Below are positions 34,737 to 64,000 of a stretch of DNA of 64,000 nt, in pieces. A program made the translations under genes and the position numbers. The stretch comes from an uncultured Bdellovibrionales bacterium. GTDB lineage: Bacteria > Patescibacteriota > Minisyncoccia > Moranbacterales > UBA1568. Location: positions 72,389 to 136,388 of the forward strand of contig CAYLJX010000003.1 in assembly GCA_964384235.1 (NCBI GenBank), in the 5' to 3' direction. Within the stretch, counting starts at the first letter, position 1. Each line of letters begins with the position of its first letter. The notes beneath the pieces were generated by a model. The model made no database searches, had not been told where the DNA came from, and worked only from the letters and a program-made list of their open reading frames with translations.

Positions 34737-37112
34737 TTACAGTTGCCATTTATCGCGGTCCTGCTGCTCGGTCACATGCGCGTCATCGTACTTTTCCGCA
34801 TCTTCCACATGCACGGGCGGTTTGCCGACGAGCACCTGCTTCTTGCCGTCTATCATCCCGACGATGCCGTTTTCTTCCATAAGGTGCATGAGACGCGCCG
34901 CCCGCGGATACCCGATACCGAGCGCCGTCTGAAGGGAAGTCGTCGACGCCTTTCCGCTCTGGACGATGATTTCCTTGGCCCGCTCATACATGTCGTCCTG
35001 CTCTGCCCCGTTGTCCACCGCATCAAGCGCCGCGGTGATATCGTCTTTTTCCTCGTCGCCGCCGAAGTCTTCTCCGATCTCGTCCTCACCGAGCTCTTCC
35101 TTCTGCGTGCGCCAGAACGCCGTCACGCGCTTCACTTCGTCATCGGAAGCAAAGACACCCTGGAGACGCTTCATCTCGGTGCCTTCAGCCGGAGCATAAA
35201 GCATATCGCCGTTTCCGAGGAGTTTCTCCGCTCCGCCGCTGTCGAGAATCGTACGCGAATCGATCTGGGTCGTCACCTGGAAAGCGACACGGGTCGGAAT
35301 GTTGGCCTTGATGAGGCCGGTGAGTACCTCGACGCTCGGCCGCTGCGTCGCGAGAACGAGGTGGATACCGATAGCGCGCGACATCTGCGCGAGGCGGATG
35401 ACGAGGGACTCCACTTCCTTGCCATGAGCTACCATGAGATCGGCCATCTCGTCGATGACGATGACGATGTACGGGAGGTTCTCGAGACGCTCTTCACGGA
35501 CGCGACCGGTCTCTTCATCGACGATGGTCTTACGCTCACCTTGGGCCAACCGCTCCCGGTAGGAGAGGAGGTCACGGGCATGCACCGATTCGAGTACCTT
35601 GTAGCGGCGTTCCATCTCCCCGACCGCCCAACGCAGGGTATTGACCACCTTTTTGTTTTCCACGATGACATCGGTCTTGAGATGCGGGATGCCTTTGTAC
35701 ACGGAGAGTTCGACGCGCTTCGGATCGACGAGGATGAGCTTGAGGTCTTCCGGAGAGTTCTGATAGAGGAGCGAGAGGAGGAGCGTGTTGATACAGACGC
35801 TCTTGCCGGAACCGGTACGTCCCGCGATAAGGAGGTGCGGCATCTTGCGCAGGTCGGCGAGGACGTGCTTGCCCGCGACATCCTGACCAAGGACGAGCGT
35901 AAGATCGGATTTGCGTTCCTTGAATTCCTTGCTCTCGAGGATGGCCTTAAGGCGCACCGTCGCGACGGACTTGTTGGGCACCTCGATACCGACGAGCGAC
36001 TGTCCCGGGATGGGAGCCTCGATACGGATCGACTGCGCCGCGAGCGCGAGCGCGAGGTCGTTACTGAGCGCGGTGATGCGTGAAAGCTTGACGCCGAAGG
36101 CCGGACGGAACGTGTACTGCGTCACGGTCGGACCGACCCGCACCTCACCCGGCTCCACCTGGATGCCGAAATACTTGAGCGTGTTCTGGATGACGTGCTT
36201 GTTACGCTCGGTGTCGCCTCCCACTCCCTGACCGGTTGTCGATTCCAGGAGATCCACCGAGGGAAGTTCCCAACGATAGGTCCTGCGGGGACGGCGCTTG
36301 CGCGGCTGCATGTAGACCGGCACATCCACCGTCTCGTCATCGGATGCCTCCTCCGCCTCTTCCGGCTTCGCATCCTCCCGGAACTCGATACTCCTGATAT
36401 TGTTCGCTTCCAGATCGTTCACCTTGCTCTCCTCGAGACTGGCTTGTTCCGTCGTGGCCGCTTCCGGAGTGAGCGCCGTAGCACGCACACCCTCCTCGAC
36501 GGAAGTAAGTGTCGGGGTTTCTTCTCCTTCTGTTTTTTCCTCCCCTACGGAACGCCGCTTGAGTTTCTCCTGCAGGCGCTCGAAAAAGTGCATGAGCGAG
36601 ACATTGAAGGCGGCGATCATGCCGATCGCAAAAAGCGCCAAAAGGATAAGCGTCGCCGCCACTCGCCCGGTGAAACCAAACAGTATCGAAGCGAACCCGA
36701 AACCGATGTATCCCCCGCCCTCACCGGCTCGCGCCACCTTGAGGAGCTCCTTGGTCGTGTCGCCCGTGTAGAGATGCAGGAGCCCGAGCACCGAAAAGAA
36801 CGCAAGGAGGAGACCGACGAACTTCACCGCATCAGCGAGCGTCGTCGTGCGGCGCTTGAGAAACATCACACCGGACACCAGAAGAAGGAGCGGGAAGAGC
36901 CACTTGCCATACCCTAAGAGCGCTCCGGAACCGGCGTCCAACCACTCGCCCAATGTTCCCGCCGTTTCAAAGAACGCCAGAAGAAACAGGAGCGCGAACA
37001 CGAACAAAAAAACCGCCGCGATGCTCCGTTTCGCGTCGCTGTGGAGAATATCCTCAAACTGGAAGCCGGATTCCTCCTCCGGCTCCTCGACTTTGCTTTT
37101 CTTCCGTCCCAT
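34737..37112 (-). CDS. ftsK: DNA translocase FtsK/SpoIIIE
   Basis: N-terminal TMs, linker, then HLLIAGRTGSGKSVCINTLLLSL..DEMADLM motor and a C-terminal gamma domain. Confidence 0.95.
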   Translation of the reverse strand: MGRKKSKVEEPEEESGFQFEDILHSDAKRSIAAVFLFVFALLFLLAFFETAGTLGEWLDAGSGALLGYGKWLFPLLLLVSGVMFLKRRTTTLADAVKFVGLLLAFFSVLGLLHLYTGDTTKELLKVARAGEGGGYIGFGFASILFGFTGRVAATLILLALFAIGMIAAFNVSLMHFFERLQEKLKRRSVGEEKTEGEETPTLTSVEEGVRATALTPEAATTEQASLEESKVNDLEANNIRSIEFREDAKPEEAEEASDDETVDVPVYMQPRKRRPRRTYRWELPSVDLLESTTGQGVGGDTERNKHVIQNTLKYFGIQVEPGEVRVGPTVTQYTFRPAFGVKLSRITALSNDLALALAAQSIRIEAPIPGQSLVGIEVPNKSVATVRLKAILESKEFKERKSDLTLVLGQDVAGKHVLADLRKMPHLLIAGRTGSGKSVCINTLLLSLLYQNSPEDLKLILVDPKRVELSVYKGIPHLKTDVIVENKKVVNTLRWAVGEMERRYKVLESVHARDLLSYRERLAQGERKTIVDEETGRVREERLENLPYIVIVIDEMADLMVAHGKEVESLVIRLAQMSRAIGIHLVLATQRPSVEVLTGLIKANIPTRVAFQVTTQIDSRTILDSGGAEKLLGNGDMLYAPAEGTEMKRLQGVFASDDEVKRVTAFWRTQKEELGEDEIGEDFGGDEEKDDITAALDAVDNGAEQDDMYERAKEIIVQSGKASTTSLQTALGIGYPRAARLMHLMEENGIVGMIDGKKQVLVGKPPVHVEDAEKYDDAHVTEQQDRDKWQL

Positions 37113-37149
37113 ATGAAACCATTATATCACACGAAAGAATGCCTTTTCA

Positions 37150-37186
37150 AAACAAAAACACCCTCGATGAGAGGGTGTTTTTGAAA
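37150..37186 (-). terminator. rpoC terminator
   Basis: aaaaacaccctc-gatga-gagggtgttttt. Confidence 0.7.
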
Positions 37187-37197
37187 GAGAAGTCTCT

Positions 37198-40100
37198 CTA
37201 TGCCTTTTCGCTCTCAAGGCCGCGGTAGCCGGTACCGGCGGGGATGAGACGTCCGATGATGACGTTCTCCTTGAGACCGCGCAAGCGGTCTTCCTTGCCG
37301 GAGACGGCGGCGTTGATGAGGACGCGGGCGGTCTCCATGAAGGACGCGGCGGAGAGGAACGATTCGGTCGAGAGGGCCACCTTGGTGATCCCGAGAACCA
37401 TCGACTCGCCGGTCGCTTCCGTGCCCTTCTTGGCGCGGGCCTCTTCGTTGGCTTCCTCGAACTGGTCGCGCTCGACGACGTCGCCGGGGAGGAGCATGGT
37501 GTTGCCCGGATCGAGGACGCGGATGCGGGAGAGCATCTGGCGGATGATGACTTCGATGTGCTTGTCGTTGATGCCTTCACCCTGGCTCGCGTAGATCTCC
37601 TCGATCTCGCGGATGATGTAGCGGTGCACCGCTTCCTGGCCCATCACCTCGTAGAGTTTCTTCAGGTCGATGTGACCTTCGGAAAGGATGGAACCGACAC
37701 CGACGAGATCACCTTCCTTGACTTTGAGCGCGACGTTCTGCGGCACCTGGTACTCGTGCTCGGTCTTCTTGTTGTCGACCACCTTGATCTTGACGACCTT
37801 GGCGGAATCCTTGGCGATGGAGGTCACCTGTCCGTCCACCTCGGAGAGGATGGCTTCGGTCTTCGGATTACGGGCCTCGAAAATCTCTTCGACACGAGGC
37901 AAACCCTGAGTGATATCGGAACCGGCCACACCACCGATATGGAACGTACGCATGGTGAGCTGTGTACCCGGTTCACCGATGGCCTGCGCGGCGACGACAC
38001 CGACGGAGGCGCCGAGCTCGACCAAGGCATTGCGACCGAGGTCGACACCGTAACAGATGCGGCAGACACCGCGGCGGGACTTGCAGGTGACGAGGGTGCG
38101 GATCTTGACTCTGGTGACGCTCTTGTCGTTCTCAATGGCCTTGGCTTCTTCCTTGGTGATGAGCGTGCCCTTCTTGACGAGGGTTTCCTTGGCTTCGTTC
38201 TTGACGGCTTCGACGGTGACACGACCCTCGACACGGGCGGCAAAGCTTGCGCCGATGGCGTCGGAATCCTCACGGTAGAGGTAGGCACCTTCGGTATCGG
38301 CACAGTCCTCGTCGCGGACGATGATGTCCTGGGCCACGTCGACAAGACGGCGGGTGAGATAACCGGCGGTCGCGGTACGGAGCGCGGTATCCGCCATACC
38401 CTTGCGGGCGCCGTGGGTCGAGATGAAGTACTCGAGAACGTTGAAGCCTTCCTTGAAGGAGCTCTTGACCGGGAGCTCGATGGTCTCTCCGGTCGGTCCG
38501 GCCATGAGACCCTTCATACCGGTCATCTGCACGACGACGGATTCGGAACCACGGGCCTTGGAATAGACCATGGAGTAGACCGGGCCTTCCTTGTCGAGCG
38601 TCTCACGCACCGCATCGGTGATCTTGTTCTTGGTGTCGTTCCAGATCTCGATGACGCGGTTCTTGCGCTCGTCGTTGGTGAGGAGACCCATGTTGTACTG
38701 ATTCTTCACCTCGGCGACATGACCTTCGGCTTCGACGATGAGTTCCTGCTTGACCGACGGCACGACGAGGTCGTCCATGCCCCAGCTGAGACCGGACTTG
38801 GAAACGGAACGGAAGGCGAGGTCCTTGAGCCGGTCGGCGAAGCGGGCGGCTTCGTCCTGACCACGGGTCGTGAGGATGCGACTCATGAGGACGCGGAGGT
38901 TCTTCTTGACCATCTCCTCGTTCACGAAGCGCAGGTCTTCCGGAAGGATGTCATTGAGGAGGATACGACCGACGGACGTCTCGATGAGCGTACCCTGGTA
39001 GGAGAGCTTGATCGCGACGTTGACATCGACGAGTCCGTTCTGGTAGGCGAGGATGGCTTCGTCCATGGTACCGAACGCCTTCCCCTGTCCCTTGCCTTCC
39101 GGTTTGATGTGGGTGAGATAGTAGGCACCGAGCACCATGTCGAGACGCGCCGACACGATCGGTTCGCCCGAGGCAGGCTTCAAGAGGTTCTTGGACGAGA
39201 GCATGATGTTGGCGCTCTCTTCGCGGGCCTGATCGGTGAGCGGCACGTGGACGGCCATCTGGTCACCGTCGAAGTCGGCGTTGAAGGCCTCACACACCAT
39301 CGGGTGGAGACGGATGGCCTTGCCTTCGATGAGGACCGGCTGGAACGCCTGTATGGAGAGACGGTGGAGGGTCGGGGCGCGGTTGAGGAGCACGTAGTGG
39401 TGCTCGATGATCTCGTCGAGGATCTCATAAGCCTCTTCGGTCTCGGCATCGACCATGCGGCCGGCGGTGCGGACGTTGTGGGCGTGCTCCTTCTCGATGA
39501 GCTTGTTGATGATGAAGGGCTTGAAGAGTTCGAGGGCCATCTTCTTCGGGAGACCACACTGATGCAGCTTGAGCTTGGGACCCACGACGATCACGGAACG
39601 ACCGGAGTAGTCCACGCGCTTGCCGAGGAGGTTCTGGCGGAAACGACCCTGCTTGCCCTTGAGGGCGTCGGCGAGGGAACGGAGCGCCCGGCGCTGACCG
39701 GTCGACGCGGCGGTCGAGGCCTGGCCGCGACGGGCCGAGTTGTCGAAGAGGGCGTCCACTGCTTCCTGGAGCATGCGCTTCTCGTTTCTCGTGATGACTT
39801 CCGGCGCACCGATAGCCATCAGTTTCTTGAGACGGTTGTTGCGGTTGATGATGCGGCGGTAGAGGTCGTTCAAGTCAGAGGTCGCGAAACGTCCACCGTC
39901 GAGAGCCACCATCGGACGAAGGTCCGGCGGAATGACCGGTACGGCAGTCGGGAGCATCCACTCGAGACGAAGACTGGCCTTCTCGAAGCCTTGGTAGACC
40001 TTGAGACGCTGGAGGAGCTTCTTCTGGTCGAGCGATTCGCTCTCGGTGAGCTCCTCGCGGAGCTTCTCGAGCTGCGCCTTGATATCGATCTTCTCGAGGA

Positions 40101-40788
40101 TCTTGCGGATGGCCTCGGCACCGATGCCGGCGGTAAAGATCTGCCCGAAGCGCGAGGAGAGGTTGAAGTACTCCACTTCCGAGAGGATCTGGTAGGGACG
40201 GAGGTTCTTGATCTCTTCCTTGGTGCCACGATACTGGTCCTTGAGCTCCTCGAGGAGTTTCTCGGTGACTTTCTCGTTCTTCTCACCGGCCTTCACTTCC
40301 TTCTGCTTGCCCTTGTATTCCTTTTCGAGGGATTCGAGAGACTGGACCTTCAGCTCCTCGTTGACATCCATGATGATGTACGAGGAGAAGTAGATGACGC
40401 GCTCGAGCTCCTGCGGCGAGATGCCGAGGACGAGACCGATCTTGCTCGGCACGCCGCGGAGGAACCAGATGTGCGATACCGGTGTGGCGAGCTTGATATG
40501 GCCCATGCGCTCGCGACGGACGATGGCACGGGTCACTTCGACGCCGCACTTGTCGCAGACGATGCCCTGATAGCGGATGCGCTTGTACTTGCCGCAGTAG
40601 CACTCCCAGTCCTTGGAAGGACCGAAGATCTTCTCACAGAAGAGACCGTCCGGCTCGTAGCGCTGGGTGCGGTAGTTGATGGTTTCCGGCTTGGTGACTT
40701 CGCCGTGGGACCACTCCATGATCTGGTCGGGGCTCGCGAGGGTGAGTTTCACGCTGTCGAAGTCGCTCACTTTCGTAATGTTTTCCAT
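37198..40788 (-). CDS. rpoC: DNA-directed RNA polymerase subunit beta' (compact, 1196 aa)
   Basis: CxxC..CxxC zinc finger, NADFDGD catalytic loop. Confidence 0.97.
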
Positions 40789-40883
40789 ATGATTTGACTA
40801 ACAACTTACAACTGACGACTTACAACAGATGCATCTGTTCAGTTTTCTTGGTTGTCGGTTGTTCGTTGTTCGTTGTTAGTTGA

Positions 40884-44288
<3,405 letters not shown>

Positions 44289-51238: not shown

Positions 51239-51451
51239 CTCCTCACTCTTTTGTTGAAAAAACTTCCCCCATCCCCTGACGCTGCAGAAGACTCTCCATC
51301 CTATACCAGAAACGCTTTTTTGTCACGTCATAACAACAAAAGACCTGAAAAACCAGGTCTTTTCTTTAGAGCTCTTTCAGCCACCACGTTCGCACCTGGT
51401 TCGAATCCCGCGATCCCGAATTCATGGAGGTCATTCGCCAGATCCGGACGA

Positions 51452-51640
51452 TCAAAGCCATGGTGGAGGAGGCGGCTCATAGGGAGGCTCTCCCGGTTTC
51501 GGCGCTTTGTGAGACAAGAGCCAGAAGAGGTTCAGGAGCTCGAGGTACCGGCCCTTCGCCTCGGCGAAAGAAAGCACTTCGTCATAGTCCGCTTCCATTC
51601 TCGCACGGAAGCGGTCGATTGTCTCATCGGTGATCTGCAT
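51452..51640 (-). CDS. Small hypothetical protein (62 aa) with a Pro-rich tail
   Basis: Helical composition; no Shine-Dalgarno sequence seen. Confidence 0.25.
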   Translation of the reverse strand: MQITDETIDRFRARMEADYDEVLSFAEAKGRYLELLNLFWLLSHKAPKPGEPPYEPPPPPWL

Positions 51641-52679: not shown

Positions 52680-53489
52680 TCACACTGCGATCGCGAGTTC
52701 CTTCAAGGTGTCGATCCAGCGTTCATTCACGATCCGCTGGAATCCCTCTCTCGTTGGGTGGAGCTCGTTGTCCCAGTCTTCGAGGTAGTTCGGGGAAACA
52801 AGACATCCGCGTGAATTGACCAAGTAGATTCGTTTGCCCGGATCCGCAAACTGCGAAAACTCCTCGGCGAGGCGGTCGATGAGGATGCGACAGATCTTCC
52901 GGCGGAGATCGGGGTCGTTCGGAACCTGTCGTTCGTCCATGGCCGGAGCGAGCCACGGCCCCGTTATCTTCAACGTCTCAAGTTTGAAGCCCCGTCCATC
53001 CGGGATGGGATAGTCGTAGGAGTGGAGGATGACGGCCGGGTGAAGCCCCTGTTTTCCGGCGGCACGCCAGACTTGATGGGTCATGGCGCCAAGGGCGGTA
53101 CCCAGTCGTCCCATCAGGGCATCCATCGCCGCCTCCTCGATACAGTCTTCCGGCGTTTGCGCTTTGGAGCAATTCCTTTTCAGCCCAAGCCCGTAATCGA
53201 CCGCATCGTTTCCTGCACCACCGATTCGGACAAACGAATAGTAGGGCATGTTCTCTGGTCGCAGTTCCCAAGCGAACTGTTTCGCGTACCTGCCGAAGAC
53301 GTACTCCTCCAGCTTGGCGCCGATGTACCCGAGCGACTGGATCTGACGATACGGATCCTGGACGCGCGGATGGGTCGCAATCGCGTAGAGGAGGTTGCTC
53401 TTCGGATACCAGAACCAGGAGTCTCCGATTGCCAGAAGTGCGGGAAATTCGCCGGGAAGCCACTGCTCGCCGGGCGCATAGATTTTCAT
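52680..53489 (-). CDS. GDSW-motif SGNH-hydrolase-like protein, paralog 1
   Basis: LLAIGDSWFWY (block I Ser), GGAGND (block III), WDNELHP (block V His); paralogous to 62572..63420. Confidence 0.65.
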   Translation of the reverse strand: MKIYAPGEQWLPGEFPALLAIGDSWFWYPKSNLLYAIATHPRVQDPYRQIQSLGYIGAKLEEYVFGRYAKQFAWELRPENMPYYSFVRIGGAGNDAVDYGLGLKRNCSKAQTPEDCIEEAAMDALMGRLGTALGAMTHQVWRAAGKQGLHPAVILHSYDYPIPDGRGFKLETLKITGPWLAPAMDERQVPNDPDLRRKICRILIDRLAEEFSQFADPGKRIYLVNSRGCLVSPNYLEDWDNELHPTREGFQRIVNERWIDTLKELAIAV

Positions 53490-53664: not shown

Positions 53665-55068
53665 TCACTTTGAAGTCAATCCCGCTTCCGTCATGAACTT
53701 GACGATCCGGGCCGCTGTGAGTGCTTCGTTGTAACCAAGCCTATCCTGAAACCGATTGAAGCCTTGGACGTGAATGCCGATAACCGCCCCGTCTGATAGA
53801 TCAAAAATTGGGCTGCCCGAGTTTCCGCCAGACGTGTTGGCCTTGTGCACGAACATTCCCTCATCAGTGACCTTTTTTCCCCCAGTAAAGCCACCTGAGA
53901 GCCGCTTGAACGGAAACTGGGGCGCCAACTTGTCGGGTGTTCTGAAGAACTCCACTTGTTCCGCAACGGTCATATCGTCGGGAGGTCCCGGATAGCCCAT
54001 GACCGCCACAATCATGTTCCCGGCGTATGCAGCATTAGGTCTTTCCGCAAGCGTGAGGCTTTTCGGAAACTGCTGATCGGTCGAAGTAAGGAGTATGGCC
54101 ATGTCATCTCGAGAACCTTTAGGCACTGCGTGGACTGCATTCAGAAAATATGAACGCTCCTTGTTGGGCTCCTCGCAAGCATTGTCCTTACCCAATGGGT
54201 ACTCGACGTCAAAATAGACCTTCGCTCCAGGGCGAATCTTCCAAAGATTCTTCTGTTCATCATACTGAGCAATACTTTTGAGCACGTGTAGGTTTGTAAT
54301 CAGATGATTCGATCCCACGACGAAGCCTGATCCTGCTGGACGATCGTCAAGCATTATCAGACCTACGCTTCTCCCGGCCCGAACGAGTGCGTCTTTATGA
54401 GATGAAATTGTCTTACTCCACTCCAATGGGTCTTTGGGCGCCCAGAGTTGCTCCTTGCAGACAAGGAAATAGGGATTTGAGAGCGCTGCAAACGACTCAG
54501 CAACAGCCGGCGATATTCCCTTAATCTGACCCAAAACAAATTCTCGTGCCCGTTGCTTCGTTGAAATTGCCGTGTTGATAGCGGAGAGCGCCACATTGTT
54601 GGCTGGCGTCTTCGGCTCGACGGCGTTAAGCTGCGCCAGCTCTACCTGCAACTGATCGATCTCCGATTCGATTACAGCGAGTAGCGCTTGTCTCTGCGCG
54701 GGACTTTGTTGTTCCAGCGATTCTTCCAAAGACTGAGGCGTCACGGTCCCGGAACGCGATGCCGGTGTCTTCGACAGATCACCGTTGGAACCAACGAGTG
54801 GTGCGCCAGGCAGCTTTCGAGGAATCGACTGGCTGACTAGTCGAAGTTCCACATCGCTTATTTCGCGGGCACGACTAACGGATTCCACGGTGGCGCGCCT
54901 GAGGGCGTCGCCTAAGAGGTCGCCAAAGAGATCTCCCGCTTGGACGCTCGACGTTCCTAAGGCAATCGAGCACAGTAGCAGTAGACCTTTCTCAAACCTA
55001 GGACGATTGATGTTGCGATTCATTTCGGTGGCCGGCGCGCAGCTAGTTTGTTCGTACCCGTTTTTCAT
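53665..55068 (-). CDS. Secreted trypsin-like (S1, chymotrypsin-fold) serine protease with an N-terminal coiled-coil region
   Basis: Signal peptide; ..GSGFVVGSNHLITNLHV.. (His), ..DMAILL.. (Asp), ..GNSGSPIFD.. (Ser). Confidence 0.8.
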   Translation of the reverse strand: MKNGYEQTSCAPATEMNRNINRPRFEKGLLLLCSIALGTSSVQAGDLFGDLLGDALRRATVESVSRAREISDVELRLVSQSIPRKLPGAPLVGSNGDLSKTPASRSGTVTPQSLEESLEQQSPAQRQALLAVIESEIDQLQVELAQLNAVEPKTPANNVALSAINTAISTKQRAREFVLGQIKGISPAVAESFAALSNPYFLVCKEQLWAPKDPLEWSKTISSHKDALVRAGRSVGLIMLDDRPAGSGFVVGSNHLITNLHVLKSIAQYDEQKNLWKIRPGAKVYFDVEYPLGKDNACEEPNKERSYFLNAVHAVPKGSRDDMAILLTSTDQQFPKSLTLAERPNAAYAGNMIVAVMGYPGPPDDMTVAEQVEFFRTPDKLAPQFPFKRLSGGFTGGKKVTDEGMFVHKANTSGGNSGSPIFDLSDGAVIGIHVQGFNRFQDRLGYNEALTAARIVKFMTEAGLTSK

Positions 55069-55105: not shown

Positions 55106-56239
55106 CTAGTCCAATGGAATACGTTTGAAGTGCGTTTCGGCAATCGCAACGCCGACGTTTTTGATAGTCCCCGCGCTGTCGCCCTCTGTCACACGATACA
55201 TTGCGACTATCCCACCAGCGGCATATAGCCGGTCACTTCGCCAGATGCTAGTCGTCTTGAGGGAAGAACCGCCCTTGGAGAGCACTTTGAGCGTGAGAGA
55301 CCGCCCCGATGCCACCTTTAGGTGTTGATCAACAACTTCCCCCACAAGGACGGAAAGCAGCAGTGGCTTTTTCGTTGCAGCGTCGACAGTTGTGAGGCGG
55401 GTTGCAAAATCGTCCACTTGTTTGATGAGTGCGTCAGCCTTCTCCTTCTTGTTCTTGTCAGCGCTCGCGGCGACGAGCGCACTGCGACGCACGAGCAGCG
55501 CCTCGAGGTTCTTCCTAAAATCCGATGTAATCTTCCCAGAAATGATGCCATCCACGGTACCCGTCGGGTACAGAACTTTTGCTTTGAGCTTGAATACGAC
55601 ATAGTCAAACAGCAACTCGTCAGGAACCGCTGCGTCCCCGAACGCCAAACTCTTATCGGTCCGCACAATCTGAGTCAATTGTGCCGCTTGCATCAGAACT
55701 GCTCCTAGCGTGACAATTGGAAGAGGGCCCTCCGGTATAGCTTCTAGTTTGACTTTGCCCAATAGCGATTCCACCCCCCTTGCGGTGCGTTCGAGCGTCG
55801 CTTTCTCGTCCCAGTAAAGCAACAATGCCACTCGATCCGTGTCAGTCATCAGGACACATGTCGCTTCGCAGTCTTTCTCGACCGCTGTCGCAATTTGGGC
55901 CGCCACCTGCGCAAACGACTCTGCTGCTCGAGCACTGACGTGGAACTTGTCGCGCTCACTGGCTTCTATCGTGAGTGATCCTTTCTTGCCAAATCCGTCT
56001 GGCAGTGCCGGATACTCGTTCTTGATTAAGGAAGCCTGTGCTTCCAATAGGTCGCTCTCGGCCTTGATCAAGGCCTTCTTGTCATTTAGGTCGTCGATGG
56101 CTGCTTGATGCGGATTTACTTGGTCCGCTGCACTACTTGCCACCGGGAAGACAACGAAGAAGACTAGAAGAAGATTCTTCGGCCAGGTTTCCAATACCCA
56201 CCTTGCCCCAGTTGCAAACACAGTTGGACAGTTCTTCAT
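55106..56239 (-). CDS. Secreted hypothetical protein (377 aa)
   Basis: Signal peptide ..LLLVFFVVFPVASSAADQ; no recognised domain. Confidence 0.55.
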   Translation of the reverse strand: MKNCPTVFATGARWVLETWPKNLLLVFFVVFPVASSAADQVNPHQAAIDDLNDKKALIKAESDLLEAQASLIKNEYPALPDGFGKKGSLTIEASERDKFHVSARAAESFAQVAAQIATAVEKDCEATCVLMTDTDRVALLLYWDEKATLERTARGVESLLGKVKLEAIPEGPLPIVTLGAVLMQAAQLTQIVRTDKSLAFGDAAVPDELLFDYVVFKLKAKVLYPTGTVDGIISGKITSDFRKNLEALLVRRSALVAASADKNKKEKADALIKQVDDFATRLTTVDAATKKPLLLSVLVGEVVDQHLKVASGRSLTLKVLSKGGSSLKTTSIWRSDRLYAAGGIVAMYRVTEGDSAGTIKNVGVAIAETHFKRIPLD

Positions 56240-56607: not shown

Positions 56608-57174
56608 TCACACCATCCCTCGCTCCGCCAGACTCACCACGTCCGTCCCCGCCACCACGAAGTGATCGAGGACCTTCACATCGACAAGTCCAAGCGCCTG
56701 CTTCAAGGCACTCGTCAGCAGCTCATCCGCCCGGCTCGGTTCGGAAACGCCAGAAGGATGGTTGTGGGCGAAGATGAGAGCGGCAGCGTTGTGCCGGAGG
56801 GCCCGCTTGACGATCTCCCTTGGATACACCGACGTCTGGCTCAAGGTGCCTCGGAAGAGTTCTTCCGAAGCGATGAGGCGGTTCTGGGCATCCAAGAAGA
56901 GCGTGAGGAACGACTCGTACTCCTGAGCAACGAAATATGCCAGGAGGTAGCGCTTCACGTGCTCCGGCGAGGTGAGGAGGATCTCCTCTCGCCGCAGGTC
57001 TTCGTAGAGGAGCCGCGTGACCAACTCCTTGGCGACCTGAAGTCGCCGCTGTGCGCTCGTCCTCGCTTCGCCCGCAAAGAGCGGCACGAGACTTCCCTGA
57101 TACAACTTCTCTGCCGCCTTCGCCCCTATGAGCCTCTCCAGCAACTCGCGGTCGCTGGCCTTCTGCATGTCCAT
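56608..57174 (-). CDS. radC: RadC-like JAB-domain protein
   Basis: N-terminal helix-hairpin-helix-like region and C-terminal ..[16 protein letters not shown].. JAMM motif. Confidence 0.85.
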
Positions 57175-57311: not shown

Positions 57312-58505
57312 ATGGACTTCTCTCACGATATCGCGCTCTTCGCCCGGACCAATGCCAGGCGAAGCTTCCAGCCCTTCGGCCTCCGTCAGGCCGACCGCCT
57401 GTTTCACCTGTATGCCATAGGGAAGACGGGAACGGGCAAGTCGACCCTCCTCGAGACGCTCGCCCTTCAGGACATGCGCGCGGGCCGCGGATTGGCCGTC
57501 ATCGATCCCCATGGCGACTTGGTGCTACGCCTCAAGAAGGCGATGCCGCCCTCGCGCCGAGACGATCTGCTTTTCTTCGACGTCCCGGATGTCTCCCAAG
57601 CCTTCGGCTACAACCCGCTGCGCAAGGTGCGGCCCGACAAGATTCCCCTGGCCGCCTCGGGACTCCTGGAGGCCTTCAAGAAGCTCTGGACGGATGCCTG
57701 GGGCGTACGCATGGAGCATGTCCTGCGCAATGCTCTCTTCGCGCTCCTCGAATACGGAGAGGCGACCCTTCCGGACATCCTTCGCCTCATGACGGACAAC
57801 GCCTTCCGATACCGCGTGTCAGCGACGCTCACCAACGAACAGGTGAAGGCCTTCTGGCAGAACGAGTTCCCCAAGTACCACCCTCGCTACCGCCAGGAGA
57901 GCATCGCTCCCATCCAGAACAAGGTCGGCGCCTTCCTGGCCGATCCCAGGCTCTACCGGATCTTCACGGCTCCTCCCGTCGATCTGCGTTTCCGCAGAGT
58001 CATGGACGAGGGGAAGATCCTCCTCGTCAATCTCTCCAAGGGACAACTCGGCGAAGACAGCGCCTCGCTCCTCGGGGCTCTCCTCGTCACGACGCTCTCC
58101 TTGGCGGCCTTCTCCCGGGCGGATATGCCGGAAGCGGAGCGGAAGCCTTTCTTCATCTTCGTCGACGAATTTCAGTCGTTCACGACCCTTTCGGTGGCCG
58201 GGATGATCTCGGAATTGCGTAAGTACAACGTGGGGCTCGTCCTCGCCAACCAGCACCTCCACCAGCTCGAGCCCGATGTCCGGCACGCGGTCCTGGGGAA
58301 CGTGGGAACGCTCGTCGTCTTCCGGGTCGGCCCTGAGGATGCCCGCTTCCTCGCCCATGAGTTCGAGGGAAGCTTCTCGCCCTTCGACCTCATGAGCCTC
58401 GCCAACCATGACATCTACCTTCGCCTCATAATCGACGGGACTCCCAGCCCGCCCTTCAGCGCGACCACCATCAAGCCAGATGATCTTGATCGCTTGAGGA
58501 TGTGA
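57312..58505 (+). CDS. TrwB/TraD (type IV coupling protein)-like P-loop ATPase of the FtsK-HerA superfamily, soluble form
   Basis: Walker A YAIGKTGTGKSTLLETL followed by VIDPHGD (compare TrwB GATGTGKSVLL...VIVDPNGD); Walker B FFIFVDEFQSF; ..VGLVLANQHLHQL.. sensor; no N-terminal TMs. Confidence 0.75.
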   Translation: MDFSHDIALFARTNARRSFQPFGLRQADRLFHLYAIGKTGTGKSTLLETLALQDMRAGRGLAVIDPHGDLVLRLKKAMPPSRRDDLLFFDVPDVSQAFGYNPLRKVRPDKIPLAASGLLEAFKKLWTDAWGVRMEHVLRNALFALLEYGEATLPDILRLMTDNAFRYRVSATLTNEQVKAFWQNEFPKYHPRYRQESIAPIQNKVGAFLADPRLYRIFTAPPVDLRFRRVMDEGKILLVNLSKGQLGEDSASLLGALLVTTLSLAAFSRADMPEAERKPFFIFVDEFQSFTTLSVAGMISELRKYNVGLVLANQHLHQLEPDVRHAVLGNVGTLVVFRVGPEDARFLAHEFEGSFSPFDLMSLANHDIYLRLIIDGTPSPPFSATTIKPDDLDRLRM

Positions 58506-58551: not shown

Positions 58552-59064
58552 ATGGGACACGCCAAGCCGACGGAGATCTTGTCGCACTGGAACACCCGCG
58601 TCGACGGCATGCAGCAGTCGTCCCACGAGTTTTACGGAGCGGTCGAACGCACCCTCGATACGCATAGTCTCAAGGACTACAAGACAGAGCGCGTGAACAT
58701 CTCGGAAGGCGGCATCTTCTCCTCGAAGCGCGAGTACCTCCAGGTGCGCCGCGCCGACATCGTCTTCCACATCTGCGCTGCGCCGTATGGCAACGGCTTC
58801 TTCCTCTCCTGGTGGCTCGGACGGATCGAGTCGGGCTTCTGGGCCTGGATCTCCGACATTCCGGTGATCGGCATGCTCGCGCAGAATTTCTTGAAACCCC
58901 TCACCTACTACAAGCTCGACACCGCCGCGATGTTCCAAGGCGTGGTCCATTCCGTCGTCCTCGAAGTCCTCGACGGCCTGACGACGGAGAAGGGCATCCG
59001 GGCGCTGGCTGAGAGCGAACGGAGGCCCGTCATGCGCGACTTCTTCGCCCGCCTCGGAGGCTAA
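58552..59064 (+). CDS. Hypothetical protein (170 aa) between the two ATPases
   Basis: Protein-like ORF with one Trp-rich hydrophobic segment. Confidence 0.45.
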   Translation: MGHAKPTEILSHWNTRVDGMQQSSHEFYGAVERTLDTHSLKDYKTERVNISEGGIFSSKREYLQVRRADIVFHICAAPYGNGFFLSWWLGRIESGFWAWISDIPVIGMLAQNFLKPLTYYKLDTAAMFQGVVHSVVLEVLDGLTTEKGIRALAESERRPVMRDFFARLGG

Positions 59065-59079: not shown

Positions 59080-62000
59080 ATGTCCGGCCTCTCGCCTGCG
59101 GAAATCATCACCACGAGCTTCTATGCGTGGGAGGTACGCGGGCGCGGGTGGCAGGTAGCGGACTATCCCGTCTGCCTTGAGCCGCCGTTTCGGCATTGCT
59201 TCGTCCTGCCCGATCTCGTCGCGGAAACGAAGCCGATCGATGACGGAAAACGGCCGACGTTCCTCAGTTCCGTGGTCGAGGGCCTGCGGAGCGCCTTCGC
59301 GCTCGACGCCACCCCTGCGCCCGAGCCCGCCCCACCGTACGAGGAACCAGCCCCCTATCCGGCACTTGCGTCCGGACCGCTCACCGCGTTTTGCGTGACG
59401 GTGCCGATGGATCACAAGAGCCATCCGGAAACGACAATCCGCCTTCTCGTCGCGCTGTCGACCTGCTGCTTCCCCGTGTCCCTCGAACTCATCGGCTGCG
59501 AAGGCCAGGTCATCATCCAACTGGTCTGCGCCGACACCGACCAGGCGCATGTGGCCGCGCAGTGCCTCGCCTACCTTCCCGACGCTGCGGTCATCGAAAC
59601 CGAGGACCTCCTTGCGAGCGTCTGGGATCGACGGCGGGAGCACGCCGTCGTCGATTTCGGGCTCTCTCAGGAATTCTTTCTGCCGTTTGATGGACTGAAG
59701 AGCCAGAAGCTCGACCCGTACCTCTCCCTTGTTCCCTCCCTCGCCAGGGCGGATCGAGACGAGGCGATCCTCCTACAGGTCCTCTTCCAAGGCGTCCAGA
59801 ATCCGTGGGGCAAGGCTATCCGCGACGCCCTCGATGATGGCCAGGGCGGTTCTGTGTTCGCGGACGCCCCAGCATTTCCCCGGCTGGCCGATGAGAAGCT
59901 GAAGACCTCCCTCTTTGCCGTCTCGGTCCGTGTCGCCGCACAGGCACAGGAGGCGGAACGAGCGTGGCACTTGGCCCGTTCGACCGGCGCCTTTTTCCTC
60001 CAATTGGGCCGACCCGGAGCCAATGAACTCCTCCCGCTTGAGAACGACGGCTACCGAGAGGATCTTCATGTCGAAGCCATCCTCACGCGGCAGTCGTACC
60101 GCCTTGGGATGATCCTCTCGGCCGACGAGTTGGCGGCGCTCGCCCATCTTCCCGATGCCGCGGTCCGTCATCCGTCCCTCACGCGGGAGGAGCGGCGGAC
60201 GAAGCCTCTTCCCGTCGAAGCCTCCGGACATCCCCATGTCCTCGGCGAAAACCAGCACCGCGGGAAGATGTCCGTCGCGTCGCTCAGTGATGGGCAGCGG
60301 CTCCAGCACACCTGGATAGTCGGCGCCTCCGGGACGGGAAAGTCGACGCTTCTCCTGAACCTCATCACTGAGGACATTCGGCTCGGTCATGGTGTCGCGG
60401 TGCTGGATCCGCACGGCGACCTGATCGACGACATCTTGGCGCGGGTGCCAGACAGCCGCACGAGCGATGTCATCGTCTTCGACCCGAGCGATACTGAGTG
60501 GCCCATCGGATTCAATATCTTCTCAGCCGGAAGCGAGGGCGAGCGGGCGCTCTTGGCTGCCGATCTCGTCGGGATCTTCCGGCGGTTCTCGACATCTTGG
60601 GGCGACACCATGAGCGCGGTGCTCGGGAACGCGGTCCTCGCGATCCTCGAGCACCCGCAGGGTGGGACGCTGCTCGACCTCAGGCGGCTCCTCGTCGATG
60701 AGCGCTTCCGCCGCGCGTACCTGGAGGACGTGGCGGACGAGGAGGTCGCCTTCTTCTGGTCGCGCGAGTACCCCGTGATCGGCTCACGTTCGATCGGCCC
60801 GATCCTGACCCGGCTTGACACCTTCCTGCGGCCCAAGGTCATTCGGCATATCGTCGGACAGCCGGATGGGAAGCTCCATTTCTCCGACGTCATGGCGTCG
60901 AAGCGCATCTTTCTCGCGAAGCTCTCCCATGGCCTCATCGGCGAGGAGAATGCCTACCTCCTCGGCAGCCTCATCGTGGGAAAGTTTCTCGGACTCGCGC
61001 TCGCGCGGCAGCAGCTCGCGAAGGATGAACGCGCCGCCTTCTTCCTGTATGCCGACGAGTTTCAGCACTTCCTCACGCCCTCCATGGAAACGCTGCTCAC
61101 GGCGGCGCGAAAGTACGCGCTTGGGGCAACGCTCGCCCATCAGACGATGGCGCAGCTCCGGGACTCGCCCAAGGTGGAAGGCGCGCTTCTCGGCAACGCC
61201 TACACGCGCATCGTCTTCCGAACCGGGGAAAGCGATGCGCGGCAGCTGGCCGAGGGGTTTTCCTTCTTTGAGGGGCGCGACATCCACGGTCTGGGACGGG
61301 GCGAGGCGATCGCCCGGCTCGGATCGAGCGGAAATGACTTCAACCTGAAAACGCTGCCGCTCCCCGGCGTGCCGCCTGGGGCGGAGGAGCGGCGCTCCCA
61401 GATCATCTTCCGCTCGCGCGAGCGCTACGGGACGCCGATCGAAGCGCTGCGGGCGCTCCTCGGGGCACGGTACAGAGCAAGCGAGGAACCGGCCGAAGCG
61501 AAGCCGAGGCCGCCGCTCGAGGAGGCACCGCCCGCGCTCTCGGGTGCGGGAGAGCCGATCGCCGCTTCCTGTGAGACACCACGGGCAAGCGTTCCGGAAC
61601 CAAAGACCGGTGAGCAACTGATGGCGCGCCGGGTACCGATCAATGTCGCAGCGGTCACCCCGGGACGGGGCGGGCAGGAGCACAAATACCTCCAGCACCT
61701 CGTGAAACGCTTGGCCGAAGAGCGCGGTTTCCGCGCCACGATTGAAGAGGCCGCGGGAGATGGCCGGGCAGACGTGGTACTGAGCAAGAGTACGCAGCGA
61801 ATCGCCTGCGAGATCTCAGTGACGACGGACCATATCCACGAGGAAGAGAACTTGAGGAAGTGCCTCGCGGCCGGATTCGAACAGATCGTCTTTGTCGTAC
61901 CCGACCGGAAACGAAGGGAGAAACTGAAAGGACATTTTCAGGAGATTGCCGGAATCGACTCGTTGGCGGTGATATCGACGGAGGAGATCGTCGCGTACCT

Positions 62001-62160
62001 CGACGGGCTGGATACCGGATCGGCCGTGGCCGAATCGACCGTGCGAGGCTACAAGGTGAAAGTCACGCGGCAGACGGTCTCGCCAGAGGAGCTGGCCGGA
62101 AGGCGCTCGGCCATCGCCGAGGTGATCGCCCGGTCGCTCCTCAAACACAAGGACGTTTGA
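59080..62160 (+). CDS. Large TrwB/HerA-like ATPase fused to an unknown N-terminal domain and a C-terminal Hjc/restriction-endonuclease-like (PD-(D/E)xK fold) domain
   Basis: Walker A WIVGASGTGKSTLLLNL..VLDPHGD, Walker B FFLYADEFQHF, paralogous to 57312..58505; the C-terminus ..LVKRLAEERGFRATIE..GDGRADVVL..RIACEISVT resembles the Hjc ..KGFAVVR..PDIIA..IEVKS pattern. Confidence 0.75.
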   Translation: MSGLSPAEIITTSFYAWEVRGRGWQVADYPVCLEPPFRHCFVLPDLVAETKPIDDGKRPTFLSSVVEGLRSAFALDATPAPEPAPPYEEPAPYPALASGPLTAFCVTVPMDHKSHPETTIRLLVALSTCCFPVSLELIGCEGQVIIQLVCADTDQAHVAAQCLAYLPDAAVIETEDLLASVWDRRREHAVVDFGLSQEFFLPFDGLKSQKLDPYLSLVPSLARADRDEAILLQVLFQGVQNPWGKAIRDALDDGQGGSVFADAPAFPRLADEKLKTSLFAVSVRVAAQAQEAERAWHLARSTGAFFLQLGRPGANELLPLENDGYREDLHVEAILTRQSYRLGMILSADELAALAHLPDAAVRHPSLTREERRTKPLPVEASGHPHVLGENQHRGKMSVASLSDGQRLQHTWIVGASGTGKSTLLLNLITEDIRLGHGVAVLDPHGDLIDDILARVPDSRTSDVIVFDPSDTEWPIGFNIFSAGSEGERALLAADLVGIFRRFSTSWGDTMSAVLGNAVLAILEHPQGGTLLDLRRLLVDERFRRAYLEDVADEEVAFFWSREYPVIGSRSIGPILTRLDTFLRPKVIRHIVGQPDGKLHFSDVMASKRIFLAKLSHGLIGEENAYLLGSLIVGKFLGLALARQQLAKDERAAFFLYADEFQHFLTPSMETLLTAARKYALGATLAHQTMAQLRDSPKVEGALLGNAYTRIVFRTGESDARQLAEGFSFFEGRDIHGLGRGEAIARLGSSGNDFNLKTLPLPGVPPGAEERRSQIIFRSRERYGTPIEALRALLGARYRASEEPAEAKPRPPLEEAPPALSGAGEPIAASCETPRASVPEPKTGEQLMARRVPINVAAVTPGRGGQEHKYLQHLVKRLAEERGFRATIEEAAGDGRADVVLSKSTQRIACEISVTTDHIHEEENLRKCLAAGFEQIVFVVPDRKRREKLKGHFQEIAGIDSLAVISTEEIVAYLDGLDTGSAVAESTVRGYKVKVTRQTVSPEELAGRRSAIAEVIARSLLKHKDV

Positions 62161-62571
62161 TAGCGACTCGCGGATCGGACGGCTGGCAAAGAAGTTTCAT
62201 TGAAGATCCTTTCTCTCGCATTGACGGGCACTGCGTCTTTGGCAGGACGGGCAGTGGCCAATGTCTTGGCCGCCATTGCCGCTCAGATCCATCAAGCAGA
62301 ACGGCACAGTCCCGCCTCGAGGAGCTATGTGCGTGATCTTTCGGTACTACAACGAAGGATCCGTTACCTCCACGTTGGCGCCGCTTGCTGCCAGCACTGC
62401 CCAAGAAGCGTGAATCCCATGGCAGGCGACAACGGTCCGTCAAGTTCGAAAGCATTTTTTATAGACCACGATCGTTTCCTGTTCAATAGATCGAATGCCA
62501 GATACCACAAGGCATGCGAGAGCCATATGCTGTTCGTCCAACAGCCTCGGCGTTCATTGGAAGGTCCGCCC

Positions 62572-63420
62572 ATGCCGCAAGCCATCGTCCTTACGCCGTC
62601 GCAACTGGAAAATCCCGACCTCGGGCAACCGCATCGGTGGGAGTTCTTCGACCGACATTACCTGGCCGAAGGAGATTCGTGGTTCACTTTGGCAGCGCTC
62701 CCCGGCGGAAACCTTCTCCAGGAGCTGCATCTACAGCGATCGTCACTGGTTATCAATACCGCCTCCCCGGGAGACACGCTCTCCCATATCGTCGAATGGC
62801 GCCAAAACCGCCCGTTTGTAAAGCTACTGTCCGAACGCAAGTTTGCACAAAAATGGGATGGGGTGCTCCTGAGCGCGGGCGGCAATGACCTCATTGATGC
62901 CGCAATTTCTCGAGACGGCATCCTCCGCCGTCCGAGCCCGACGGCAACCACCGCAGGTGAGTGCATTCACGATGAGAATCTTGAATTATTGAAACGCCAT
63001 CTGTCGTTCCATCTTGAACAGATCATAGAACTCCGCGACGCTCGGAAGAGCCCCAACCAGGGCATACCGGTCTTTCTCCACACGTACGACTATCCCACTG
63101 CGAGGCCGGCGCCCGCGAAGCTCGTTGGCGTGGTAGGCGTTTCCGGACCGTGGCTGCATCGCGCGTACACAGAACACCATATCCCCGATGCATTATGGTC
63201 ACCTTTGACAGAGCATCTGATCGACTGGCTGGCCAGATTGCTTCAGGAACTGAAGCTTCCAAATGTAACCGTTATCGATACGAGAGGGACACTCGAGCGA
63301 GCTGCTGCGGGAACAACTGGAGACAGCGGTGACTGGCTCAACGAGATCCATGCGAATCAAGGCGGCCGGAAGAAGCTTGCGAAACGGTGGGCGCAGGACT
63401 TGCATCGCATTGTCGGATAG
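62572..63420 (+). CDS. GDSW-motif SGNH-hydrolase-like protein, paralog 2
   Basis: YLAEGDSWFT, SAGGNDL, HTYDYP, GPWL, WLNEIHAN, parallel to paralog 1; start taken at MPQAIV with a GGAAGG Shine-Dalgarno. Confidence 0.65.
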   Translation: MPQAIVLTPSQLENPDLGQPHRWEFFDRHYLAEGDSWFTLAALPGGNLLQELHLQRSSLVINTASPGDTLSHIVEWRQNRPFVKLLSERKFAQKWDGVLLSAGGNDLIDAAISRDGILRRPSPTATTAGECIHDENLELLKRHLSFHLEQIIELRDARKSPNQGIPVFLHTYDYPTARPAPAKLVGVVGVSGPWLHRAYTEHHIPDALWSPLTEHLIDWLARLLQELKLPNVTVIDTRGTLERAAAGTTGDSGDWLNEIHANQGGRKKLAKRWAQDLHRIVG

Positions 63421-63945: not shown

Positions 63946-64000
63946 TCTCTTGACCCAGAACAACGCACCTCAAAGCGGTTCGTGGAACTGCATGCGTTGG

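Follow-up and report, generated by a model that had tools for sequence, protein, structure and literature searches.

We analyzed a 64,000-nucleotide (nt) stretch of contig CAYLJX010000003.1 from an uncultured Bdellovibrionales bacterium, hereafter called the window, and focused on a gene that starts with ATG and occupies positions 59080..62160 of the forward strand. Its 1026-amino-acid (aa) product, which we call VB4N, is a VirB4-like ATPase fused to a putative nuclease. The reading we favor, at a probability of roughly 45%, is that VB4N is the core enzyme of a DNA-processing and translocation module of widespread serine-recombinase integrative elements, which often insert into comM. The other two genes of this cassette, directly upstream, encode a small partner protein and a paralogous ATPase, ATP396. 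We favor processing and pumping of the element's own DNA because the module behaves as part of the element backbone and not as cargo.

VB4N is a real, widely conserved gene, since a search of a 5.8-billion-protein collection returned more than 2,400 homologs and the best 120 of these are nearly all full length (about 980-1050 aa, 44-68% identity). Scanning one genome per species turned up a relative in at least 565 species. Of these species-level relatives, the best 80 are 39-62% identical to VB4N and come from Bdellovibrionales (the closest), Accumulibacter, Patescibacteria, Acidobacteriota, Binatia, Planctomycetota, Bacteroidota, Verrucomicrobiota, Nitrospirota, Desulfobacterota, and others; the family is thus spread over many phyla at 40-60% identity. 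Its members carry the public names [quoted passage not shown] or "hypothetical." VB4N falls outside the curated VirB4, TraD, HerA, and MADS families, whose cut-offs it misses or whose partner genes are lacking. What is new, in a family that has no experimental characterization, is both the fusion in which ATPases of the type IV secretion system (T4SS) family are found here and the genomic role that they have. Literature searches on VirB4 together with serine recombinases, or on comM islands, returned nothing specific.

A preliminary description of this DNA, made from the letters alone, had divided the protein into three parts, a division that our analysis upholds. The N-terminal domain (residues 1-392; 59080..60255, + strand) had seemed to match nothing recognizable, and residues 1-400 indeed gave no match to our local Pfam, NCBIfam, and PADLOC models. 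However, the precomputed Pfam assignment of this domain in homologs is PF26449 (DUF8128), a family on which we found no paper, and a fold search with the domain matched TrwK/VirB4 at about 10% sequence identity. As the query did not include the P-loop domain, the match probably falls on the N-terminal domain of VirB4. PHROG 5156 (824 positions, function unknown) is collinear with VB4N residues 271-794 (9e-57), an alignment that would fit a VirB4-sized ancestor. Since its DUF8128 domain folds like TrwK/VirB4, VB4N is a VirB4-like and not a HerA-like ATPase, and it has the VirB4 architecture of a VirB4-type N-terminal domain followed by a C-terminal P-loop ATPase. By sequence it stands apart from the curated family, as the TIGR00929 (VirB4_CagE) model gave 20.5 bits against a cut-off of 643.1.

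The second part, from about residue 393 to 790 (60256..61449, + strand), is a TrwB/VirD4-type P-loop ATPase domain, as judged from Pfam and the Walker motifs. Between about residues 400 and 720, VB4N scored 40.6 bits with TrwB_AAD_bind (PF10412; cut-off 20.5) and 23.3 bits with TraG-D_C (PF12696; cut-off 22). Of the earlier label "TrwB/HerA-like," the TrwB half therefore stands above its Pfam cut-off, whereas the HerA half does not: DUF87/HerA reached 21.9 bits, under its cut-off of 23.2. We likewise rejected a HerA-type defense ATPase, as the PADLOC HerA matches had E values of 0.009-0.03 (none below 0.009) and no partner gene is present. Matches to the NCBIfam TraD, VirB4, and CedD models were weak and far under the cut-offs. 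Across 27 diverse homologs, neither Walker A (GxxGxGKS; G415-x2-G418-x-G420-K421-S422) nor Walker B (D659-E660) varies. The domain is followed by a poorly conserved Pro/Ala/Glu-rich linker (about residues 791-855; 61450..61644, + strand), delimited on a conservation profile of 121 sequences.

ATP396 (57312..58505, + strand) is a 397-aa TrwB/VirD4-like ATPase without a membrane anchor. As had been noticed, it is paralogous to the ATPase domain of VB4N, with 38% identity over 357 aa (E 6e-65), and the ATG start at 57312 agrees with the gene called in identical contigs. ATP396 scored 41.6 bits with TrwB_AAD_bind (cut-off 20.5), and both ATPases have a TrwB-type nucleotide-binding domain. A hydropathy scan found no N-terminal hydrophobic segment in either protein; the hydrophobic windows are internal only (residues 120-140 and 273-291).

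The third part, residues 856-1026 (61645..62157, + strand), had been likened to restriction-endonuclease cores, and both the predicted structure and a fold search place such a fold there. In an AlphaFold2 model (predicted local distance difference test score 86; alignment of 51 sequences), the elements follow the order alpha(10-26), beta(30-33), beta(44-48), beta(51-57), alpha(63-75), beta(80-84), which is the alpha-beta-beta-beta-alpha-beta core of the PD-(D/E)xK superfamily. By our own count, 18 of the 25 best fold matches are restriction-endonuclease-fold proteins and the remainder are B12-binding Rossmann-like domains. The nuclease matches include AF1548 (10.7), VC1899 (9.8), NucS (9.7), Can2 (9.7), NgoMIV (9.6), Upx (9.3), N.BspD6I (9.2), FokI (9.0), and Hjc (7.5). 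At the sequence level, similarity to solved nucleases was not significant, the best real relative being AF1548 (E 0.58). A match to 6ahx (E 0.02-0.03) was set aside as chance, as it is short and involves an unrelated 101-aa protein, while the fold search yields nucleases. A profile search of 1.84 billion representative sequences found the domain in 2,678 proteins. In all of the best 150 it lies at the extreme C terminus, and short members appear to be fragments that have lost their N termini, which makes the domain specific to the VB4N family.

Residue conservation in this domain was counted over 269 members of the family. D898 and E921 are present in 269/269 and E889 in 268/269. Nearly as constant are H868 (265/266), Y870 (264/267), Q872 (262/268), E911 (263/269), N924 (259/269), K927 (263/269), and C928 (261/269). 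Judging from the model, D898 would stand at the start of the second core strand, as the "PD" Asp; E911-x-S913 would lie in the third strand, at the "(D/E)xK" position; and E921, N924, and K927 would sit on the helix that follows. The putative site thus reads H868/E889/D898/E911-x-S913/E921/N924/K927. The E-I-S in place of E-x-K, already remarked upon in the preliminary description, is real and family-wide: residue 913 is Ser in 242 of 269 members, otherwise mostly Ala, Cys, or Thr, and never Lys.

One explanation is that the domain is catalytically dead and serves in DNA binding or recognition only, as had been proposed when the Ser was first noticed. This explanation concerns the domain alone and is compatible with any role of the protein; the consistent loss of the motif Lys is what speaks for it. 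We nevertheless consider it unlikely, as the near-invariance of H868, E889, D898, E911, E921, N924, and K927 is a pattern typical of a preserved metal-dependent active site. Moreover, the motif Lys can be replaced or relocated within the PD-(D/E)xK superfamily, as in BamHI (E-x-E) and BglII (E-x-Q), and in NgoMIV/Cfr10I, where the site is permuted; NgoMIV itself ranks among the top fold matches. Because the acidic cluster is preserved and the Lys appears relocated, the conservation pattern points to a working noncanonical active site rather than a decayed one.

Directly upstream of VB4N lies the gene for a 170-aa protein of no known family (58552..59064, + strand). We called and clustered open reading frames (ORFs) within 10 kb on either side of VB4N in 84 loci (1,561 ORFs). 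A small partner of ~170-270 aa is encoded immediately upstream of VB4N and on the same strand in 76 of the 84 loci, with a gap of about ±12 nt; the eight loci in which none was called are mostly contig ends or ORF-calling artifacts. The small partners consist of a conserved N-terminal part of ~90 aa, a hydrophobic insert of variable length, and a conserved C-terminal part of ~60 aa. The insert ranges from almost none, in the window copy, to about 50 residues, and a strongly hydrophobic 19-aa window occurs in 58 of 73 proteins. We read the long forms as having two predicted transmembrane (TM) helices. We found 1,709 homologs, and among the best 120 there was no Pfam family, no functional name, and no fusion to VB4N. 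The small partner also has no solved relative and no matching PADLOC model, and its matches to G-protein-coupled receptors were discarded as hydrophobic noise. In gene order, the small partner stands to VB4N as virB3 stands to virB4, and VirB3 is a protein with two TM helices that binds VirB4 and is at times fused to it (PMC12624023).

ATP396 is encoded in 40 of the 84 loci, usually directly upstream of the small partner gene. In 41 loci a large serine recombinase (Resolvase, Recombinase, and Zn_ribbon_recom domains) is encoded within 10 kb; its usual place is 580 nt downstream of VB4N, on the same strand, and a fragment of comM (Mg-chelatase) often follows. With the small partner gene written as sm and arrowheads marking direction, the layouts include "RadC< ATP396> sm> VB4N>," which is that of the window, "Cas4-like< SWIM< ATP396> sm> VB4N>," "sm> VB4N> SerRec> comM_N<," and "SerRec< ATP396> [cargo] sm> VB4N> SerRec>." The cargo between the two ATPase genes is diverse, with an ABC transporter, a PRTase-like protein, and a secreted peptidase among the examples. 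The module occupies the same place and orientation beside the recombinase from phylum to phylum, and cargo enters between its genes; in this it behaves as element backbone. The pairwise-identity matrix of VB4N correlates with those of ATP396 (Mantel r 0.71), the small partner (r 0.34), and the recombinase (r 0.31; p <= 0.009 in each case). Two genomes each hold two divergent copies of the cassette at 68-79% nucleotide identity (L035/L057 in OZ245025.1 and L017/L028 in DASRFA01), and in one of them each copy adjoins the same methyltransferase and tyrosine-integrase neighbors.

The divergently oriented gene upstream of ATP396 in the window encodes a RadC-like JAB protein (56608..57174, - strand; Pfam RadC, 1.6e-43), and RadC occurs in 15 of the 84 loci, mostly just upstream of ATP396. 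Other recurrent neighbors are RuvC-like proteins, XRE regulators, ArdC, DUF932, ParA, orphan N6/N4 methyltransferases, and tyrosine integrases. The preliminary description had held that homologs in partition or conjugation operons would count against a defense system. The neighborhoods bear this out in part, with serine recombinases, comM fragments, RadC, ArdC, DUF932, ParA, and orphan methyltransferases but no classical conjugation operon.

Two further observations concern the elements at large. In six loci (L001, L035, L040, L049, L053, and L074), the recombinase has as neighbors a RuvC-like gene, an XRE regulator, and a ~430-aa protein (cluster c11) that contains a GSGKT motif and has no Pfam assignment; this protein may serve the elements as a replication or helicase module. 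Separately, the Sulfitobacter mediterraneus plasmid NZ_CP081110.1 (L096) carries a remnant of this backbone, comprising a recombinase, DUF3768, and a 395-aa ATPase; insertion sequence elements occupy the place expected of the small partner and VB4N genes.

The window is chromosomal, with rpoB, rpoC, ftsK, gyrB, and fusA upstream of 44.3 kb. From 51369 to its end at 64000 it is 100% identical to contigs from several metagenomes, and comparison with these contigs provides direct evidence that the window copy belongs to a serine-recombinase mobile element. Three variants of the left flank meet at the junction 51369/51370. In the first (L087, L088, L090, L097, and L101), the breakpoint falls at codon 501 of the gene for an intact 588-aa serine recombinase, after which further element genes follow, ArdC included. 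The second variant, that of the window (identical to L100), has unrelated DNA here and keeps only the last 88 codons of the recombinase (51369..51633, + strand); the third (L089/L099) has yet other unrelated DNA. Homology between the intact recombinase and a relative extends beyond the breakpoint as far as residue 538, which makes the intact form the native state. Immediately to the left of the junction is a hairpin (AAAAGACCTG...CAGGTCTTTT). The 3' remnant in the window was recognized through the identical contigs; a tblastn search of the window for serine recombinases and further backbone genes found none.

The right edge lies outside the window, at a window-equivalent position of ~71,615 (18135/18136 in L091/L092). 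Two continuations of the constant segment occur there. One is the 3' part of comM (PCPCGYLG..., with Mg_chelatase and Mg_chelatase_C); the other is the 5' part of a second serine recombinase, of 667 aa and with an HTH_3 domain, from which recombination at this edge would strip 156 C-terminal codons. The cassette thus sits in a constant segment of ~20 kb whose two breakpoints are att-like, each in the 3' part of a recombinase gene. Both edges of the segment are site-specific breakpoints, and with its recombinase-linked junctions and variable flanks the window copy qualifies as part of a serine-recombinase integrative element. A scan for promoters and terminators between 56.2 and 63.6 kb was uninformative.

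Other features of the window were noted around the element. The genes ftsK, rpoC, and rpoB (34737-44288) directly precede a variable region of about 44.5-51.4 kb, which contains an amidase, an LTD/PKD protein, and proteins of no assigned function and differs between otherwise identical contigs; it may be another island or an integration flank. The cassette is flanked by genes for paralogous proteins of the same BLAST cluster, at 52680-53489 (- strand) and 62200-63420 (+ strand), the latter with sub-threshold matches to Pfam GDSL lipases, and relatives also occur in a related Bdellovibrionales locus (L004/L012). Also in the constant segment, a trypsin-like serine protease (53665-55068, - strand) is paired with a 377-aa protein of unknown function (55106-56239, - strand); the protease part of the pair matches PADLOC RT-Protease_XI models (2e-10).

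From the domain identities, the conservation of the ATPase motifs, the conserved gene order, the recombinase linkage, and the mobile-element setting, we infer a scheme for membrane tethering, hetero-oligomer formation, nuclease activity, substrate, and direction of transport. The small partner, with its two predicted TM helices in most relatives, would hold the VirB4-like N-terminal domain at the inner membrane, in the way that VirB3 tethers VirB4. The TrwB-type ATPase domain would form a DNA-pumping ring, probably together with ATP396. On its flexible linker, the C-terminal domain could nick or cut the pumped DNA, in place of a relaxase or nickase. The most likely substrate would be the excised DNA of the element itself, for horizontal transfer.

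A bolder version of this scheme is that the three genes form a minimal self-sufficient machine for DNA export or import, descended from T4SS ATPases but working without a T4SS and with a built-in relaxase. We regard this version as rather unlikely. If true, it would explain the spread of comM-targeting serine-recombinase islands over more than a dozen phyla, Patescibacteria included. These islands carry no recognizable conjugation or capsid genes; the VB4N family, which couples two T4SS-type ATPases to a nuclease fold right beside the island recombinase, may explain how one class of them moves. If the module drives transfer, it would be a new, very compact route of horizontal gene transfer with relaxase-free DNA processing.

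Several observations weigh against the reading of VB4N as a processing and translocation enzyme. No conserved channel, pilus, or other T4SS component and no multi-TM cluster was found within 10 kb of VB4N in the 84 loci, and the DNA would have to pass one or two membranes without recognizable channel proteins. Full-length VB4N homologs were absent from 72,556 plasmids and 50,697 phages. The window copy of the small partner has only a short amphipathic stretch and no clear TM helix, and we rejected its identification as VirB3 by sequence, as it resembles neither VirB3 nor any solved protein. The C-terminal domain departs from the canonical D...(D/E)-x-K motif, keeping D898 and E911 but with Ser at the Lys position. 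The Mantel correlations could be due in part to host phylogeny. Finally, the PADLOC mad8 profile matches both VB4N (3e-12) and ATP396 (2e-18), and many neighbors of the module are defense-like (SIR2, TIR, PIN, PRTase-CE, ORC/CDC6-like, methyltransferases, and HicAB among them).

These last two points favor a role in defense or exclusion, in which the membrane-associated ATPase-nuclease, ATP396, and the small partner would recognize and degrade incoming DNA of phages, plasmids, or competing elements, the mobile element carrying the system as cargo or weapon. The fusion of an ATPase to a nuclease fold fits such a role, as do the defense nucleases Can2, Upx, and Hna among the fold neighbors of the C-terminal domain and the lack of a classical conjugation operon at the loci. 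A paper on CoCoNuT loci also reports a VirB4-like ATPase with a small helical protein (PMC11090510). Nonetheless, the PADLOC matches are limited to the shared ATPase domain, the small partner is unmatched, and other MADS genes are missing from the neighbors. The position of the module is also hard to reconcile with cargo: it is fixed in place and orientation by the recombinase at the element end across phyla, it has cargo inserted between its own genes, and the identity matrix of VB4N correlates with that of the recombinase. We therefore consider a defense role possible but rather unlikely, and the earlier claim that VB4N is the strongest single-gene sign of a DNA-targeting defense system is unsupported as worded, given the mobile-element context. 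If it were a defense or exclusion device, it would be a new ATPase-nuclease immune module made of secretion-system parts.

Instead of moving DNA across the envelope by itself, the module could act as a terminase- or FtsK-like motor that replicates, segregates, or packages the excised element inside the cell or into a helper's particle. An FtsK/HerA-superfamily ATPase combined with a nuclease mirrors the logic of terminases and of HerA-NurA; ParA, RuvC-like, and Cas4-like genes recur in the elements; VB4N matches PHROG 5156 (9e-57); and a relative in phage CP-51, gp91, is encoded between a partition protein and a nicking replication initiator. However, no capsid or terminase genes are conserved within the 10-kb flanks of the 84 loci, the small partner is predicted to span the membrane in most relatives, and the N-terminal domain is specifically VirB4-like. 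As none of the 50,697 phage genomes encodes a full-length homolog, and none of the plasmids does, we dropped a plasmid or phage origin of VB4N. The N-terminal domain alone likewise had no match on the 72,556 plasmids, and the C-terminal domain had a single weak tblastn match there, to a "restriction endonuclease." We judge a motor confined in this way to be quite improbable.

Finally, VB4N could be an ordinary component (VirB4 and coupling protein) of a full conjugative T4SS whose remaining genes lie elsewhere in a large integrative and conjugative element. Its NCBI name, [quoted passage not shown] and the presence of ArdC, RadC, and DUF932, which are typical of conjugative elements, agree with this idea, and the loci we examined cover only 10 kb to either side. 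Against it, an ATPase profile found no other VirB4-, VirD4-, or FtsK-type ATPase among the 1,561 ORFs, and the loci share no multi-TM or T4SS-like cluster. Several loci have their two recombinases no more than about 10 kb apart, too close for a T4SS to fit between them. In addition, the curated VirB4 and TraD cut-offs are missed widely, and the carriers include Patescibacteria with tiny genomes. We consider this explanation very unlikely and return to the favored reading, that of a processing and translocation enzyme of the element itself, in comparing VB4N with known systems.

VB4N shares the fold of its N-terminal domain with VirB4/TrwK, the inner-membrane ATPase of the T4SS (plasmid R388), at the ~10% identity given above. 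It differs from VirB4/TrwK in lacking nearby genes for VirB3, VirB6, VirB8, VirB9, and VirB10 in the 84 loci, in its extra C-terminal nuclease-like domain, and in an ATPase domain that scores better with coupling-protein profiles. Both ATPases of the window match the type IV coupling-protein domains of VirD4/TrwB/TraD, and a phmmer search of the PDB finds TrwB. Unlike those proteins, they have no N-terminal TM anchor, no relaxase was found among the proteins scanned and no T4SS nearby, and the TraD models are missed widely. At 38% identity, VB4N and ATP396 are far closer to each other than either is to canonical coupling proteins.

With the HerA-nuclease systems (Sir2-HerA, DUF4297-HerA, and HerA-NurA), VB4N shares the idea of an FtsK/HerA-superfamily ring ATPase working with a nuclease. 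Its N-terminal domain is VirB4-like, however, and not a HAS barrel, and it has no SIR2, DUF4297, or NurA partner. The likeness to MADS is confined to the ATPase domain that VB4N and ATP396 share with mad8. We rejected membership in MADS, as mad8 alone matches and none of eight neighboring proteins matches another MADS model (mad1-mad7); our literature search on mad8 and MADS found no description of Mad8. In extended Type III-A CoCoNuT loci, an EccE3-like/VirB4-like ATPase and a small helical protein are attached to restriction-type loci, in a McrBC-type setting for which the portion of the source consulted describes no nuclease fusion (PMC11090510); the likeness to VB4N is one of description.

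Compared with AF1548, NucS, Can2/Card1, NgoMIV, FokI, and Hjc, the C-terminal domain has Ser in place of the motif Lys and the additional invariant or near-invariant residues H868, E889, E921, and K927. It also differs from the Hjc-type resolvases, which are small stand-alone dimers with an E-D-E-K tetrad. The phage relative mentioned above, gp91 of Bacillus phage CP-51 (L095, gp96-gp90; 911 aa, PHROG 5156), is 24% identical to VB4N over part of the N-terminal domain and the ATPase. The gp91 gene lies downstream of one for a "partition protein" and overlaps the following gene, annotated as "replication initiation by nicking," in the genome of a lytic or transducing phage. The protein has no fused nuclease, its pairing with a separate nickase paralleling the VB4N fusion, and its function is unknown.

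The closest parallel to the proposed role of the C-terminal domain comes from the MOBC relaxases, such as TraX of pAD1 and MobC of CloDF13, which are of the PD-(D/E)xK type and nick DNA for transfer without a covalent intermediate (PMC12857230). They differ from VB4N in being stand-alone proteins with winged helix-turn-helix domains; the C-terminal domain matched no plasmid relaxase by tblastn, and no sequence relation to them is apparent. Because no relaxase family turned up in the Pfam and NCBIfam scans of the proteins we scanned, the C-terminal domain could, by analogy, play a MOBC-like nicking role. The MOBC relaxases, being PD-(D/E)xK enzymes, and the CP-51 homolog, with its nicking initiator directly following, are two precedents that support the role proposed here.

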